From UHGV virus genome UHGV-0090138: 17,705 bases of DNA. The stretch is one strand, 5' to 3'. The first letter of the stretch is position 1; each line of letters opens with the position of its first letter. This DNA is from a virus. This document shows, piece after piece, positions 6,323 through 14,221 of the stretch. The translations under genes were made by a program, and so were the position numbers. The notes under the pieces are model-generated. The model did no database searches. It saw only the letters and a list, made by a program, of their open reading frames with translations, and was not told the DNA's origin.

Positions 6323-6613
6323 TCATCTTTTAACTCCATATACCGCCAATACCCGTTTCATCGCGGCACTCTGGCGACACTCCTTAAAAATCAGGTTCGT
6401 GCTCATCTTTCCTTCCCGTTCTTCCCTAGTAGCAAACCGGTAATACACCGTTCGCCAGACCTTACCTTCGATAACCAGAAGACCTGCCCGTGCCATTTTA
6501 GCCGCGGCCTGATTTATGCTGGTTACTGTTGCGCCTGTTAGCGCGGCAACGTCCGGCGCACAGAAGCTATTATGCGTCCCCAGGTAATGAATAATTGCCT
6601 CTTTGCCCGTCAT
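6323..6613 (-). CDS. ren: Ren, 96 aa
   Basis: MTGKEAIIHYLGTHNSFCAPDVAALTGATVTSINQAAAKMARAGLLVIEGKVWRTVYYRF... matches lambda Ren. Confidence 0.92.
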   Translation of the reverse strand: MTGKEAIIHYLGTHNSFCAPDVAALTGATVTSINQAAAKMARAGLLVIEGKVWRTVYYRFATREEREGKMSTNLIFKECRQSAAMKRVLAVYGVKR

Positions 6614-7311
6614 ACACTTGCTCCTTTCAGTCCGAACTTAGCTTTAATTTCTGCGATCTTCGCCAGAGCCTGTGCACGATTTAGAGGTCTACCGCCCATA
6701 ACAGGAAGTTGTTTTACTGGTTCAGGTATCGTCTCACCACGGTTAATTCGCGCTGTCATACAGGTCAGTTCATCGGCAGCCTTGCGCCGTAATTCCGCAT
6801 CAGTAAGCGCATTGGCCCGCATGTTCTGATACAGGTTGGTAACCAGCCAGTAGTGCGCGTTTGATTTCCACGGATAAGACTCCGCATCCGGATACAGGCC
6901 TCGCTTCCGGCAATACTCGTAAACCATATCAACCAGCTCGCTGACGTTTGGCAGTCCGGCGATAACGGATGCTTCTTCCCGGCACCATGCAACAAACTGC
7001 CCGGGTGATGGCAGAAATGGTCGATTCTGCCGACGGGCTACGCGCATTCCTGCGTTAACCTGTTCCATCGTGGTGATCCCGTTTTCCCGAAAAGCCAGAA
7101 CCCACTGGCGACGGATTTCGTTCACTTCGTTCTGGTCACGGTTAGCCAGGCTCGCCGGGAAAGTTGCCAGTAACTGGCTGAACACACCGTTGATGATCTG
7201 CGCTACCTGCTGTACCTGCGGCTTTTCGTCGTACTGTTCCGGCATGTTGTTGGCGATCCGACGCATCTGCTCACGGTCAAAGTTAACCATCTGTGCGGCG
7301 ATGTTTTTCAT
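6610..7311 (-). CDS. P: Replication protein P (DnaB loader), 233 aa
   Basis: MKNIAAQMVNFDREQMRRIANNMPEQYDEKPQVQQVAQIINGVFSQLLATFPASLANRDQ... matches lambda P. Confidence 0.95.
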   Translation of the reverse strand: MKNIAAQMVNFDREQMRRIANNMPEQYDEKPQVQQVAQIINGVFSQLLATFPASLANRDQNEVNEIRRQWVLAFRENGITTMEQVNAGMRVARRQNRPFLPSPGQFVAWCREEASVIAGLPNVSELVDMVYEYCRKRGLYPDAESYPWKSNAHYWLVTNLYQNMRANALTDAELRRKAADELTCMTARINRGETIPEPVKQLPVMGGRPLNRAQALAKIAEIKAKFGLKGASV

Positions 7312-8207
7312 AGATCCACCCCGTAAATCCAGTCAGTGTTTGTCAGGTCGAGTTTTGGTTTTCCGGCTGTCACGCCAGCCTGTTGCTTGTTACGGTTGAT
7401 TTCGAGCTGGGTCCACTTGTCGCGGAGTTTGGCCGGACTCAGCACGTTACCGGACCAGAAGTTGTCCTGGCAGGCCCAGCGGAAAAGCACACACATATCG
7501 CGGTGGTTACGTCCGTCACGTTCACGCATCAGGCGGATATCGTTAGCCCACCCAGCAAAATTCGGTTTTCTGGCTGATGGCGCGATGGTCTTCACCATGT
7601 CAAACATCCACTCTGCGGCGGTCAGGTCTTCTGCTGTTCCCCACTTACTGCCGCTCTGAATTGCAGCATCCGGTTTAACCACAGAAAGATCGTTTTCTGG
7701 CTGGTCAGAGGATTCGCCAGAATTCTCGGACGAATAATCTTTTCTTTTTTCTTTTGTAATAGTGTCTTTTGTGTCCCCCTGTTTTGAGGGATAGCAATCC
7801 CCCAATTTGAGGGATGTTTTATCCCTCGTTTTAGGGGATTTTCCCTCGTTTTGAGGGATACACCATTCTGAGATGTTTTTATTTGGTCCAAACATGCCGC
7901 CTTGCTGCTTGATAATATTCATTCTGACGAGTTCTAACTTGGCTTCATTGCACCGTTTGACAGGTAACTTTGTAATCTCGCTAAGTTGAGAATCGGTGAT
8001 TCTGTCCATTGGTTTATTCCACCCATAGGTTTTACGCAGAATGGCAAGCAGCACTTTAAACTGTCGCTTGGTCAGATCTGCGCCTGAATAAGCCTCAAGC
8101 AGCATATTTGATAGTCTGGCGTAACCATCATCGAGATCTGCCACATTACGCTCCTGTTTGGCAAAGTTACCTCTGCAGAAGTTGAGTATTTTGGCTGTAT
8201 TTGTCAT
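7308..8207 (-). CDS. O: Replication initiator O, 299 aa
   Basis: MTNTAKILNFCRGNFAKQERNVADLDDGYARLSNMLLEAYSGADLTKRQFKVLLAILRKTYGWNKPMDRITDSQ... matches lambda O; contains the ori iterons. Confidence 0.95.
   Translation of the reverse strand: MTNTAKILNFCRGNFAKQERNVADLDDGYARLSNMLLEAYSGADLTKRQFKVLLAILRKTYGWNKPMDRITDSQLSEITKLPVKRCNEAKLELVRMNIIKQQGGMFGPNKNISEWCIPQNEGKSPKTRDKTSLKLGDCYPSKQGDTKDTITKEKRKDYSSENSGESSDQPENDLSVVKPDAAIQSGSKWGTAEDLTAAEWMFDMVKTIAPSARKPNFAGWANDIRLMRERDGRNHRDMCVLFRWACQDNFWSGNVLSPAKLRDKWTQLEINRNKQQAGVTAGKPKLDLTNTDWIYGVDL
7735..7860. repeat. Lambda-type replication origin: four ~18-bp iterons plus adjacent AT-rich region, inside O
   Basis: Four tandem copies of tccctc-N-gaggga-type iterons (about 7774..7791, 7798..7814, 7822..7838, 7842..7858) with AT-rich tttcttttttcttttgtaat beside them, as in ori-lambda. 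Confidence 0.9.
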
Positions 8208-8239: not shown

Positions 8240-8536
8240 TCAGAATTGCATATCAATTTGCTTAAAATCCTCGGTGGCGGCCGGGGATTTTTTCTTTGTG
8301 ATTTCAGCAAGCGCATACTTAAAAGCCCTGCTAATCGGACTGATGTCTGATGCCATTCCGAAAGCACACAAGACCGAAGCAATAAATCTCCAGTCCGTTC
8401 TGCTTATCTTCGATTCATGACAGCCAATCATCTTTGCCAGACCGCGCTGGGTAAGCGTTGATAGGTTGATGAGTAAATCTGTTTCTGCGCGATCAACGTC
8501 ACGCTGTGATAGTTTGCTGTAACTTGTTCGTTCCAT
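8240..8536 (-). CDS. cII: CII-family transcriptional activator, 98 aa
   Basis: Same size and position as lambda CII; C-terminus ...KKKSPAATEDFKQIDMQF parallels lambda CII ...KKRPAATERSEQIQMEF; divergent N-terminal DNA-binding part. Confidence 0.75.
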   Translation of the reverse strand: MERTSYSKLSQRDVDRAETDLLINLSTLTQRGLAKMIGCHESKISRTDWRFIASVLCAFGMASDISPISRAFKYALAEITKKKSPAATEDFKQIDMQF

Positions 8537-8677: not shown

Positions 8678-8893
8678 TTAAGCAGCTTTGTGCTCCGGCG
8701 GGAACACATCATCAAGACTTACTTTTGCGCCTAACTTGTTTAGACACGCAACAAGAGCACGGCATGTTTTAAGGTCTGGGAAGCGACGACCAGATTCCCA
8801 ATGTCCGATAGCTCCCTGTGTGCATCCAACTGCCTTAGCAAGTGTTGTTTGAGAGATATTCAGTGACTCTCGATATTTTCGTAGGTTGCTCAT
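8678..8893 (-). CDS. cro: Cro-like repressor (HTH, XRE-type), 71 aa
   Basis: HTH motif [23 protein letters not shown]; first gene of the minus-strand operon, divergent from cI; GGAGGG RBS. Confidence 0.85.
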
Positions 8894-9004
8894 ATGCCCT
8901 CCATAGTAACCACAAATAAAAAATACAATATGTACTCATTAAACACAAGCAAAAAATACACATTGTGCATGGATGGTTCCAGTACAGAGCGTAATAATAA
9001 GGAC
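8894..9004. promoter_or_regulatory. OR operator / PR-PRM divergent promoter region
   Basis: 111-bp cro-cI spacer with three related ~15-bp operator-like sites (8923..8937, 8955..8969, 8981..8995) resembling AGTACATAT(C/T)GTA(C/T)T; the same motif recurs at OL. Confidence 0.6.
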
Positions 9005-9664
9005 ATGAAAATGAAATGGTATGAACTGGCTAGATCCAGAATGAAAGAGCTCGGCATAACTCAAGAGAAGTTAGCCGAAGAGCTAGGTATGACGCAGGGT
9101 GGAATTGGACACTGGTTGCGCGGATCTCGTCATCCATCTCTTAGTGATATTGGTGTGGTGTTTAAATACCTTGGTATTGATAACATATCATTCAACCACG
9201 ACGGGACATTTTCACCTGTTGGCGAATACTCATCGGCCCCAGTTAAAAAACAATATGAGTACCCTGTTTTTTCTCATGTTCAGGCTGGGATGTTCTCTCC
9301 AGAACTCAGAACCTTTACCAAAGGCGATGCGGAGAGATTGGTAAGCACAACCAAAAAAGCCAGTGACTCTGCATTCTGGCTTGAGGTTGAAGGTAACTCA
9401 ATGACCGCACCAACAGGTTCCAAACCTAGTTTTCCTGACGGGATGTTAATTCTGGTTGACCCAGAGCAAGCTGTTGAGCCCGGCGATTTCTGCATAGCCA
9501 GACTTGGTGGTGATGAGTTTACCTTCAAGAAACTGATCAGGGATAGCGGTCAGGTGTTTCTACAGCCACTAAACCCACAATACCCAATGATCCCATGCAA
9601 TGAGAGTTGTTCCGTTGTGGGGAAAGTTATCGCTAGTCAGTGGCCTGAAGAGACGTTTGGGTAG
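9005..9664 (+). CDS. cI: CI repressor (N-terminal HTH + C-terminal LexA-like S24 autopeptidase domain), ~219 aa
   Basis: [26 protein letters not shown]; C-terminal [10 protein letters not shown]... and ...FTFKKL (Ser/Lys dyad); the ORF-track start 8894 is rejected because it would leave no operator region; start at ATG 9005 or 9011. Confidence 0.88.
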
Positions 9665-9852: not shown

Positions 9853-10074
9853 ATGAAAAAATCTGCAAAGCACTTTTTCAGCGCTATGGGCTCTATCCTT
9901 GACCTTTGCCCAGCAGGTAGCTACAGCGAGTATCATTCAAATGCTACAGACATCGACCTTATCAACTCAGATTGGGTTAAGGTAGGTAGTTACGTTAGAG
10001 ACGCTGTAACTGATAATGAGCAGAAAAAAATCCCAAAGAAAGCTTCAAACCGCCGCCCCGAGAAATCTTGTTAA
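9853..10074 (+). CDS. Hypothetical small hydrophilic protein, 73 aa (first gene of accessory locus in the rexAB position)
   Basis: ORF-track frame with AGGA RBS 8 nt upstream of the ATG; no recognisable motif; 3' end overlaps the next ORF by 59 nt across an A7 tract. Confidence 0.5.
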   Translation: MKKSAKHFFSAMGSILDLCPAGSYSEYHSNATDIDLINSDWVKVGSYVRDAVTDNEQKKIPKKASNRRPEKSC

Positions 10075-10549
10075 CCAACCAACTCCGTTAGGGCGAGTTC
10101 AAGACGGTAAAACCGAACTGCTTATAAATGAGGTCGCAAAGAACCCTCAAGTTCTTGAGCGCCTCATGGACAGGCCAGATCTAGCTGGCATCATGATGCA
10201 GGTGACTCACACTAGATCAGGGCCACTCCCAGACGCTGACGAATTAGCTAAGTACGAAAGAATATCTCCAGGATTCGCTCGCGAAATAATGGACATGGCT
10301 AAGGCTGAGCAAAAACACAGACACGAGTATTACAAAGCAGGACAGAGGGGAGCAATTTGGCGAGATCGACTCGGACAGATCTTTGCGATGACTTCTGTCT
10401 TTGTTTTCGCAGGAATTGCTTACAAGATGATTCAGCACGAGGCTTATGGCTGGGCTACCGGGCTTCTTGGTGCTGAGTTAGTTGCTTTAACTAGCGTGTT
10501 TATAATTGGAAGAAGAGACAAACCGAATCCAAAGCAAACTAAAAAATGA
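10016..10549 (+). CDS. Small membrane protein, 177 aa (possibly DUF2335-like): basic N-terminus, conserved central motif, two C-terminal transmembrane helices
   Basis: Motif PLPDADELAKYERISPGFAREIMDMAKAEQKHRHEY followed by hydrophobic IFAMTSVFVFAGIAY and WATGLLGAELVALTSVFIIG and basic tail RRDKPNPKQTKK; no convincing RBS before ATG 10016; DUF2335 assignment is from memory. Confidence 0.6.
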   Translation: MSRKKSQRKLQTAAPRNLVNQPTPLGRVQDGKTELLINEVAKNPQVLERLMDRPDLAGIMMQVTHTRSGPLPDADELAKYERISPGFAREIMDMAKAEQKHRHEYYKAGQRGAIWRDRLGQIFAMTSVFVFAGIAYKMIQHEAYGWATGLLGAELVALTSVFIIGRRDKPNPKQTKK

Positions 10550-10554
10550 GACAA

Positions 10555-10580
10555 CCCGGCTTCCGCGCCGGGTTTTCTTT
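10555..10580 (+). terminator. Rho-independent terminator ending the cI-accessory transcript
   Basis: cccggc-ttccgc-gccggg stem-loop followed by ttttcttt, 6 nt after the ORF stop. Confidence 0.75.
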
Positions 10581-10714
10581 GCCTAACGCCCCCAAAAAAA
10601 CACATAACCAATTGTATTTATTTTAAAATTAATAGATACAACTCACTAAACAACGCAATTCTGATCTCTCCCTACATCGCCGAGGCAATACACCCACGCT
10701 AAAAAACAACACTA

Positions 10715-10795
10715 TTAAATACAAAGCGTTGTAAAAAACCACCCCTCAATAGAACAAATCGTATTGACCAGATAAAGTACATATCGTACTATTTA
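10715..10795 (+). promoter_or_regulatory. PL promoter with OL operators
   Basis: -35 TTGACC (10765..10770), 17-bp spacer, -10 TACTAT (10788..10793); operator-like inverted repeats AGTACATATCGTACT (10777..10791, over the spacer/-10) and TACAAAGCGTTGTA (10720..10733). Confidence 0.65.
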
Positions 10796-10838: not shown

Positions 10839-10884
10839 GCTCTTTAAACAACGTCGAACACTCGACTACGTGGCTGAAAAGCCA
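10839..10884 (+). promoter_or_regulatory. nutL: boxA (GCTCTTTA) plus boxB hairpin (GGCTGAAAAGCC)
   Basis: Between PL and N; same boxA/boxB sequences and spacing as nutR. Confidence 0.7.
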
Positions 10885-13544: not shown

Positions 13545-14221
13545 CACCGGACATTATCCTGCAGCGTACCGGGATCGACGTGAGAGCTGTCGAACAGGGG
13601 GATGATGCATGGCACAAATTACGGCTCGGCGTCATCACCACTTCAGAAGTTCACAACGTGATAGCAAAGCCCCGATCAGGAAAGAAGTGGCCTGACATGA
13701 AAATGTCCTACTTCCACACCCTGCTAGCTGAGGTTTGCACCGGTGTGGCTCCGGAAGTTAACGCTAAAGCGCTGGCCTGGGGAAAACAGTACGAGAACGA
13801 CGCCAGAACCCTGTTTGAGTTCACTTCCGGCGTAAATGTTATTGAATCCCCGATCATCTATCGCGACGAAAGTATGCGCACCGCCTGCTCTCCCGATGGT
13901 TTATGCAGTGACGGCAATGGCCTTGAGCTGAAATGCCCGTTTACCTCCCGGGATTTCATGAAATTCCGGCTCGGTGGTTTCGAGGCCATAAAGTCGGCTT
14001 ACATGGCCCAGGTGCAGTACAGCATGTGGGTGACGCGAAAAGATGCCTGGTACTTTGCCAACTATGACCCGCGTATGAAGCGTGAAGGCCTGCATTATGT
14101 CGTGATTGAGCGGAATGAAAAGTATATAGCGAGTTTTGACGAGATGGTGCCGGAGTTCATCGAAAAAATGGACGAGGCACTGGCTGAAATTGGTTTTGTA
14201 TTTGGGGAGCAATGGCGATGA
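13541..14221 (+). CDS. exo: Exo (lambda exonuclease, Red-alpha), 226 aa
   Basis: [65 protein letters not shown]... matches lambda Exo; ATGA overlap with the bet stop. Confidence 0.97.

Follow-up and report, generated by a model that had tools for sequence, protein, structure and literature searches.

Related short sequences recur in the spacer between the divergent cro and cI genes of a lambda-like prophage and again at its predicted leftward promoter, raising the question of whether they are the operators of a lysis/lysogeny switch and, if so, which immunity specificity they define. The stretch of DNA analyzed here, referred to as the window, is 17,705 nucleotides in length and represents a lambda-like Escherichia coli prophage in reverse orientation that contains no stx within the window. 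A sequence-only reading had described three sites of ∼15 bp in the cro-cI spacer, a fourth at PL, and a further TACA-N6-TGTA palindrome, and had proposed that this operator set, shared between OR and OL, defines a distinct, non-lambda immunity specificity. Our analysis indicates that the sites are very probably the operators (OR1-3 and OL1-3) of a switch between lysis and lysogeny that is organized as in lambda, has VT2-Sakai (Sp5) immunity, and is carried by a lambda-like prophage that lacks stx. This assignment draws on the presence of the sites, how far they exceed chance, where they lie, and how well they are conserved, all of which were observed, as were the identities of the two regulatory proteins.

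Results

Genetic Setting of the Switch Region

The coordinates of the relevant features are collected in Table 1. Over the whole window length, the nearest phages are the lambda-like PhiR11_1, mEp332, and ev099, and segment 8600-10900 has 100% matches to E. coli chromosomes (e.g. NZ_CP148483). In several otherwise 100%-identical E. coli prophages (e.g. NZ_CP017631), an IS3-family insertion splits the match to this segment in two.

Table 1. Features of the window that are relevant to the CI/Cro switch
Feature	Position	Strand	Description
P	6610-7311	-	ORF; lambda-type P
O	7308-8207	-	ORF; lambda-type O
cII	8240-8536	-	ORF
cro	8678-8893	-	71 aa, HTH_3, variant "cro4"; from ORF list and Pfam
PR (predicted)	8920-8948	-	-35 TTGTGT 8943-8948, 17-bp spacer, -10 TATTTT 8920-8925; from sequence reading
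OR1	8921-8937		AAATACAATATGTACTC; weight-matrix score 17.2, second best in window
OR2	8954-8970		AAATACACATTGTGCAT; leave-one-out rank 7 of 17,689
PRM (predicted)	8970-8998	+	weak -35 TGGATG, 17-bp spacer, -10 AATAAT; from sequence reading
OR3	8980-8996		CAGTACAGAGCGTAATA; leave-one-out rank 7
cI	9011-9664 (in-frame ATG also at 9005)	+	217 aa; Pfam HTH_3 and Peptidase_S24
DUF2335 membrane-protein gene	10016-10549	+	predicted, 177 aa
OL3	10717-10733		AAATACAAAGCGTTGTA; leave-one-out rank 6; the TACA-N6-TGTA palindrome described earlier
OL2	10750-10766		TAGAACAAATCGTATTG; leave-one-out rank 4; 25-bp-spaced direct repeat of OL1
PL (predicted)	10764-10792	+	TTGACC, 17-bp spacer, TACTAT; from promoter scan
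OL1	10775-10791		AAGTACATATCGTACTA; best weight-matrix score in window, 18.6
N	downstream of DUF2335 gene	+	gene order cI, 73-aa ORF, DUF2335, PL, N

Between cI and OL, at the position of rexA/rexB in lambda, the interval 9853-10549 is instead occupied by a 73-amino acid ORF, for which a Pfam search gave no match, and by the DUF2335 gene. A strong terminator hairpin is present at 10553-10574, 3' of the latter gene. In homoimmune phages, the corresponding cargo may be absent, DUF1828, or other hypothetical genes, and the slot is therefore an exchange site for accessory genes that are expressed from the prophage.

Two further elements have annotated counterparts in VT2-Sakai. A TTGC-N6-TTGT sequence at 8514-8527, within the start of cII, is equivalent to the features annotated there as PRE and "CII protein binding site." Downstream of PL, a nutL-like element (10839-10866) comprises a boxA-like GCTCTTTAA at 10839-10847 and a boxB-like hairpin, GTCGAACACTCGAC, at 10853-10866; the hairpin was detected by the terminator scan, and the element as a whole has the VT2-Sakai annotation N-utilisation leftward.

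Six 17-bp Sites Form Two Clusters

Scoring with a symmetric weight matrix placed the six 17-mers of Table 1 above all other sites among 17,689 positions in the window. When each site was scored with a matrix derived from the other five, all were recovered within the top 7 of the same 17,689 positions. The 12 half-sites yield the consensus nA(G/A)TAC(A/G)n, in which A2 is present in 11 half-sites and both A5 and C6 are present in all 12. Dyad symmetry of the single sites is moderate, extending to 3-5 of 8 positions. The sites are spaced by 33 bp (OR1-OR2) and 26 bp (OR2-OR3) in the right cluster and by 33 and 25 bp in the left.

Simpler patterns gave the same picture. The degenerate core ARWACANNNYGT occurs 9 times in the 17.7-kb window, as compared with 1.23 occurrences expected, and none of 200 shuffles reached this number; 7 of the 9 matches fall inside the two operator clusters. 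Core matches at 8759-8770 (inside cro) and 14016-14027 were attributed to chance, by which ∼1.2 would be expected. The 15-mer AGTACATATYGTAYT of the sequence-only reading has perfect matches at 10776-10790 and, on the minus strand, at 8922-8936; the sites at 10751-10765 and 8981-8995 match it with 2 and 3 mismatches, respectively, and no further matches occur across the 17.7-kb window. The middle OR site (8955-8969) has 4 mismatches to this 15-mer and was found by the five-site weight matrix, at rank 7.

The related sites that the sequence-only reading had placed in the cro-cI spacer and at PL therefore all exist, to within 1-2 bp of the positions it gave, and its proposal of an operator set common to OR and OL is borne out, although OL contains three sites, of which OL2 had been overlooked. 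What had been described as ∼15-bp sites are 17-mers that share one register across all six, and the palindrome at 10720-10733, previously listed as a separate element, is OL3 in this register. OL3 was assigned to this register and not read as TACA-N6-TGTA because TGTA is replaced by TATA in three homoimmune phages, a change that would hit an invariant core C under the N6 reading but falls at a degenerate position under the 17-bp register.

Other candidates were rejected. The pattern ARTACA-N5-GTAMT has zero matches, its spacing being wrong, and the 17-bp register fits instead. A possible seventh site, CATAACCAATTGTATTT at 10603-10619 (score 11.3), lies in a terminator-proximal flank that is nearly unchanged in the heteroimmune phages lambda, 434, and HK97, and at that score it is missing from the homoimmune phages 720R6, phi458, and ev017. 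Given that this 17-mer is also found in lambda, it is probably not an operator.

Placement of the Sites at Predicted Promoters

The three promoters are consensus-level predictions that agree with "putative" promoter features in GenBank. In AP000422, the counterpart of PR is the "putative major rightward promoter" (annotated in AP005153 as well), that of PRM is the "putative maintenance promoter for cI," and that of PL is the "putative major leftward promoter." A generic promoter scan of the window detected PL but not PR or PRM.

OR1 lies over PR and OL1 over PL in the same geometry, such that the promoter spacer and bases 1-5 of the -10 element are covered in each case. OR2 is positioned 5 bp upstream of the PR -35 element and abuts the -35 element of PRM, whereas OR3 covers the predicted spacer and -10 element of PRM. 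At the left cluster, OL2 extends over the initial 3 bp of the PL -35 element. Divergent cI and cro genes, a tripartite operator over PR/PRM, and a second cluster over PL together constitute the architecture of a lambdoid switch.

With the predicted -10 element of PRM at 8993-8998 (AATAAT), transcription would begin at about the first base of the in-frame ATG at 9005, and the cI mRNA may thus be leaderless, as it is in lambda. A Shine-Dalgarno-like AAGGA at 8999-9003, which would serve the ATG at 9011, would then be present on longer (PRE) transcripts only.

Conservation and Distribution of the Module

The segment comprising cro, OR, and the cI region for the N-terminal domain was found in ∼100 phage records and in 776 of 5426 complete E. 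coli genomes. For analysis of conservation, the window was compared with VT2-Sakai, 2G7b, ev017, 720R6, and phi458. These belong to different virus genera, with short-tailed Stx phages, lambda-like siphoviruses, and a P22-like Lederbergvirus represented, and their cI-OL intervals range from no annotated gene to ∼1.3 kb of genes. All retain the six sites, 33 and 26 bp apart in OR and 33 and 25 bp apart in OL, an arrangement seen in five or six homoimmune phages overall. Only 4 of 72 columns vary within the site cores, defined as positions 2-7 and 11-16 of each 17-mer, as compared with 44 of 107 in the spacers (Fisher p = 3.6e-8), and the rare changes within sites are mostly at degenerate or central positions.

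Homology to lambda, 434, and HK97 continues through the terminator at 10553-10574 up to ∼10669 and then ends, which marks the left edge of the immunity-specific segment. The stretch at 10597-10669, which follows the cI-operon terminator, shows ∼90% identity with lambda, 434, HK97, HK106, and others.

These data bear on whether the repeats could be promoter-associated or AT-rich repeats, or the sites of another factor, with CI binding elsewhere. Such an origin would be compatible with the moderate symmetry of each site and with the AT-rich regions concerned, but it would not explain why the motif occurs three times at each early promoter and essentially nowhere else in the window, why it is inherited together with the cI/cro pair across phages that otherwise differ in their modules, why the sites are selectively conserved relative to the flanking spacers, or why the motif stops at the point from which sequence is shared with heteroimmune phages such as lambda. 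We consider this explanation highly improbable, and the sites are treated below as putative operators of CI and Cro.

Domain Structure of CI and Cro

Pfam searches identified an HTH_3 N-terminal domain and a Peptidase_S24 C-terminal domain (E 1e-28) in CI. Residues 82-217 are identical to residues 101-236 of lambda CI at 135 of 136 positions. By contrast with this near identity, the N-terminal domain is about a third identical to that of lambda CI: residues 9-56 align weakly with lambda residues 24-70, and the domain alone matches lambda CI 1-92 with an E value of 0.0026. The N-terminal ∼80 residues are specific to this immunity type. The union of a type-specific N-terminal part with a lambda C-terminal part makes CI a natural chimera, with a recombination junction inside cI at the linker, near 9250. 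Since the alignment begins at lambda residue 24, a lambda-like N-terminal arm is probably absent. A lambda CI carboxy terminus was previously described as common to cI2c repressors (Smith et al. 2012; PMC3430580).

Inspection of the CI polypeptide sequence reveals that Ala92-Gly93, Ser130, and Lys173 align with Ala111-Gly112, Ser149, and Lys192 of lambda CI. In lambda and LexA-family repressors, the Ala-Gly bond is the cleavage site, and the Ser and Lys residues form the catalytic dyad. CI of the window thus has both the Ala-Gly site and the Ser/Lys dyad of a LexA-like self-cleaving repressor.

Cro is a 71-amino acid HTH_3 protein (Pfam E 4e-12) for which Pfam reported no lambda Cro family. 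Its identity with the N-terminal domain of CI is 35%, and the recognition-helix motif TQG(G/A)IGHW is common to both proteins, which fits competition of CI and Cro for a single operator set. A close relative of Cro with a solved structure is the 82-amino acid "lambda repressor-like protein" (PDB 28tn; E 4.5e-17 over residues 1-69). As the sequence-only reading had noted, both Cro and the N-terminal part of CI diverge from their lambda counterparts, and this is evident from Pfam and from alignment.

The Putative Operators Match Those of VT2-Sakai

The cro-OR-cI segment is 98.4-98.6% identical to those of VT2-Sakai (Sp5), the Stx1-converting phage, Stx2 II, 1717, YYZ-2008, and Nil2, and a VT2-Sakai-type immunity region is present in PA/PST1 phages too. 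Cro is identical to VT2-Sakai Cro at 71 of 71 residues. CI is identical at 216 of 217, the sole difference being at residue 209 in the C-terminal domain, such that the N-terminal domains are 100% identical.

The GenBank entries AP000422 (VT2-Sakai) and AP005153 (Stx1-converting phage) contain six "putative operators," three at OR and three at OL, that correspond one-to-one with the sites in the window; putative PR, PRM, and PL features accompany them in both entries. The VT2-Sakai 17-mers have also been tabulated (PMC10742460 Table S1). OR2, OR3, OL1, and OL3 are identical to those of VT2-Sakai, both as annotated in GenBank and as listed in that table. OR1 and OL2 are each 1 nt different, in both cases at degenerate positions, the OR1 difference being at position 17. 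Operator order and spacing (33/26 and 33/25 bp) are as in VT2-Sakai, as is the placement of PR, PRM, and PL. The repressor has been typed as cI2c and Cro as cro4 (Smith et al. 2012; PMC3430580), and OR1-3 and OL1-3 have been predicted in Sakai-type (PST1) phages (Yin et al. 2015; PMC4587872).

Judged by sequence, the putative operators are those of the known VT2-Sakai (Sp5) immunity type, cI2c/cro4, and not of a new one. The operator observation that began this analysis is confirmed and slightly extended, to six sites, and was right in kind. The distinct specificity proposed with it, by implication uncharacterized, does not stand, the six sites having already been annotated in AP000422, AP005153, and PMC10742460 Table S1. 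That the sites match a known immunity group, with CI and Cro essentially identical to those of VT2-Sakai, is an outcome that the sequence-only reading had itself named as counting against its proposal.

The relationship is confined to the immunity module. VT2-Sakai is a short-tailed Stx phage, whereas the prophage analyzed here is lambda-like, has O and P of the lambda type, and contains no stx in the window. The cI-OL interval contains the DUF2335 gene in the window and other content in VT2-Sakai, which accounts for an OR-OL distance of 1.8 kb in the former and 2.2 kb in the latter.

A literature search that included full-text queries with the operator 17-mers, and that some key older papers lay beyond, returned no paper containing these 17-mers. 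In the accessible literature, neither footprinting nor gel-shift data were found for the cognate CI or Cro at the six putative operators.

Discussion

Descriptions of this immunity type, with its operators and chimeric CI, date from around 1999-2000, and re-annotation has been frequent since, so the discovery value is small. From sequence, homoimmunity is predicted between this non-Stx prophage and Sp5-type Stx2a phages, which is of some practical value: the prophage could accordingly block lysogenization or lytic growth of such phages in its host or recombine with them. The module is common in E. coli.

For the binding of CI and Cro, the order of occupancy, cooperativity, and activation of PRM, we infer the following scheme. 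CI dimers would read the 17-bp pseudo-palindromes, with half-site nARTACRn, through the HTH N-terminal domain. CI bound at OR1 would occlude PR, and CI bound at OL1/OL2 would occlude PL. From OR2, which abuts the weak -35 element of PRM, CI would probably activate cI transcription, whereas occupancy of OR3, over PRM, would allow negative autoregulation by CI and shut-off of PRM by Cro. Since the C-terminal domain of CI is essentially that of lambda, dimerization, pairwise cooperativity, OL-OR looping, and RecA-stimulated self-cleavage are expected as in lambda. The exact boundaries of the predicted operators could shift, given that footprinted operators of the Stx phage BAA2326, which has a different immunity type, were weakly symmetric and hard to predict (PMC5977221).

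In the window as in lambda, each of the two early promoters has a tripartite operator of 17-bp sites, and PR and PRM are divergent. As in lambda, OR1 and OL1 lie over the promoter spacer and -10 element, and OR2 lies beside the -35 element of PRM. Half-site positions A2, A5, and C6 are the same in the two systems, as is the 17-bp length. The inter-operator spacings in lambda are 24/23 and 24/20 bp, as compared with 33/26 and 25/33 bp in the window. In view of an OR1-OR2 spacing of 33 bp, longer than the 24 bp of lambda, lambda-like cooperativity between OR1 and OR2 is not guaranteed, and the identity of the cooperative pair is something that we infer. It is conceivable, if rather unlikely, that the pair at OR is OR2-OR3 and not OR1-OR2 and that CI assembles with lambda CI into mixed dimers, tetramers, or octamers in double lysogens. 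The former would amount to a differently wired switch. The latter would link switches that are otherwise heteroimmune, and it might account for the cross-immunity of VT2-Sakai and lambda that PMC10742460 ascribes to Fattah et al. 2000.

The operators themselves differ clearly from those of lambda. The half-site is nARTACRn in the window and TATCACCG in lambda, with T/A at position 4 in the former and an invariant C in the latter. Under a lambda weight matrix, the window sites score from -12.6 to -1.6 and lambda's own sites score 13.5-22.4; conversely, lambda sites reach at most 6.2 under the window matrix, with which the window's own sites score 14.5-19.4. No site with the lambda consensus TATCACCGC..GGTGATA was found in the immunity region, and the sole match in the window with ≤3 mismatches, at 438-454, is at chance level. 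The earlier statement that the sites do not match lambda operators is thus upheld by both position 4 and the matrix scores. Neither the lambda CI N-terminal domain nor a lambda-type Cro is present, Cro being an all-helical HTH_3 protein in the window, whereas the C-terminal oligomerization and cleavage domain of lambda CI is retained at 135 of 136 residues.

Designation of the switch as non-lambda is therefore sound with respect to the operators, but full heteroimmunity is called into question by the report of Fattah et al. 2000, in the form in which PMC10742460 cites it. Lambda CI bound all six VT2-Sakai operators with apparent KD values of 3.7-6.4 μM, as compared with 0.2-3 μM for lambda's own sites (PMC10742460). 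Together with the near identity of the C-terminal domains and with the A2, A5, and C6 positions common to both half-site sets, this could mean that specificity is partly shared with lambda, the two CI proteins cross-reacting through weak operator recognition or mixed oligomers to give partial cross-immunity. The micromolar affinities are, however, ∼10-30-fold weaker than those for lambda OR1/OL1 in the same assay (PMC10742460), and they fall in the range of non-specific binding by the 933W repressor, 6.1 μM (PMC3317979); the difference at position 4 and the gulf between the lambda-matrix scores of the two sets of sites also argue against recognition. Being so near the non-specific range, these affinities lead us to regard sequence-specific cross-recognition as unproven, and partly shared specificity appears doubtful. 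Cross-talk between lambda CI and the CI of the window through their common C-terminal domain might occur.

The preferred assignment, a switch of the VT2-Sakai type, also distinguishes the window from other lambdoid immunity groups. Operators of the 434 type (ACAA-N6-TTGT) have 0 matches in the window, which is therefore not imm434. Phages 933W and Phi24B, whose immunity type provides the most thoroughly studied switch of any Stx phage, resemble the window in having a lambdoid CI/Cro switch over PR and PL in a Stx-associated phage background, but they are of type cI1b/cro3 and not cI2c/cro4 (PMC3430580). Phage 933W has two OL sites only and a repressor that lacks cooperative binding (PMC3064807; PMC3317979). 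The module in the window, by contrast, combines three OL sites with a cooperativity domain of the lambda type.
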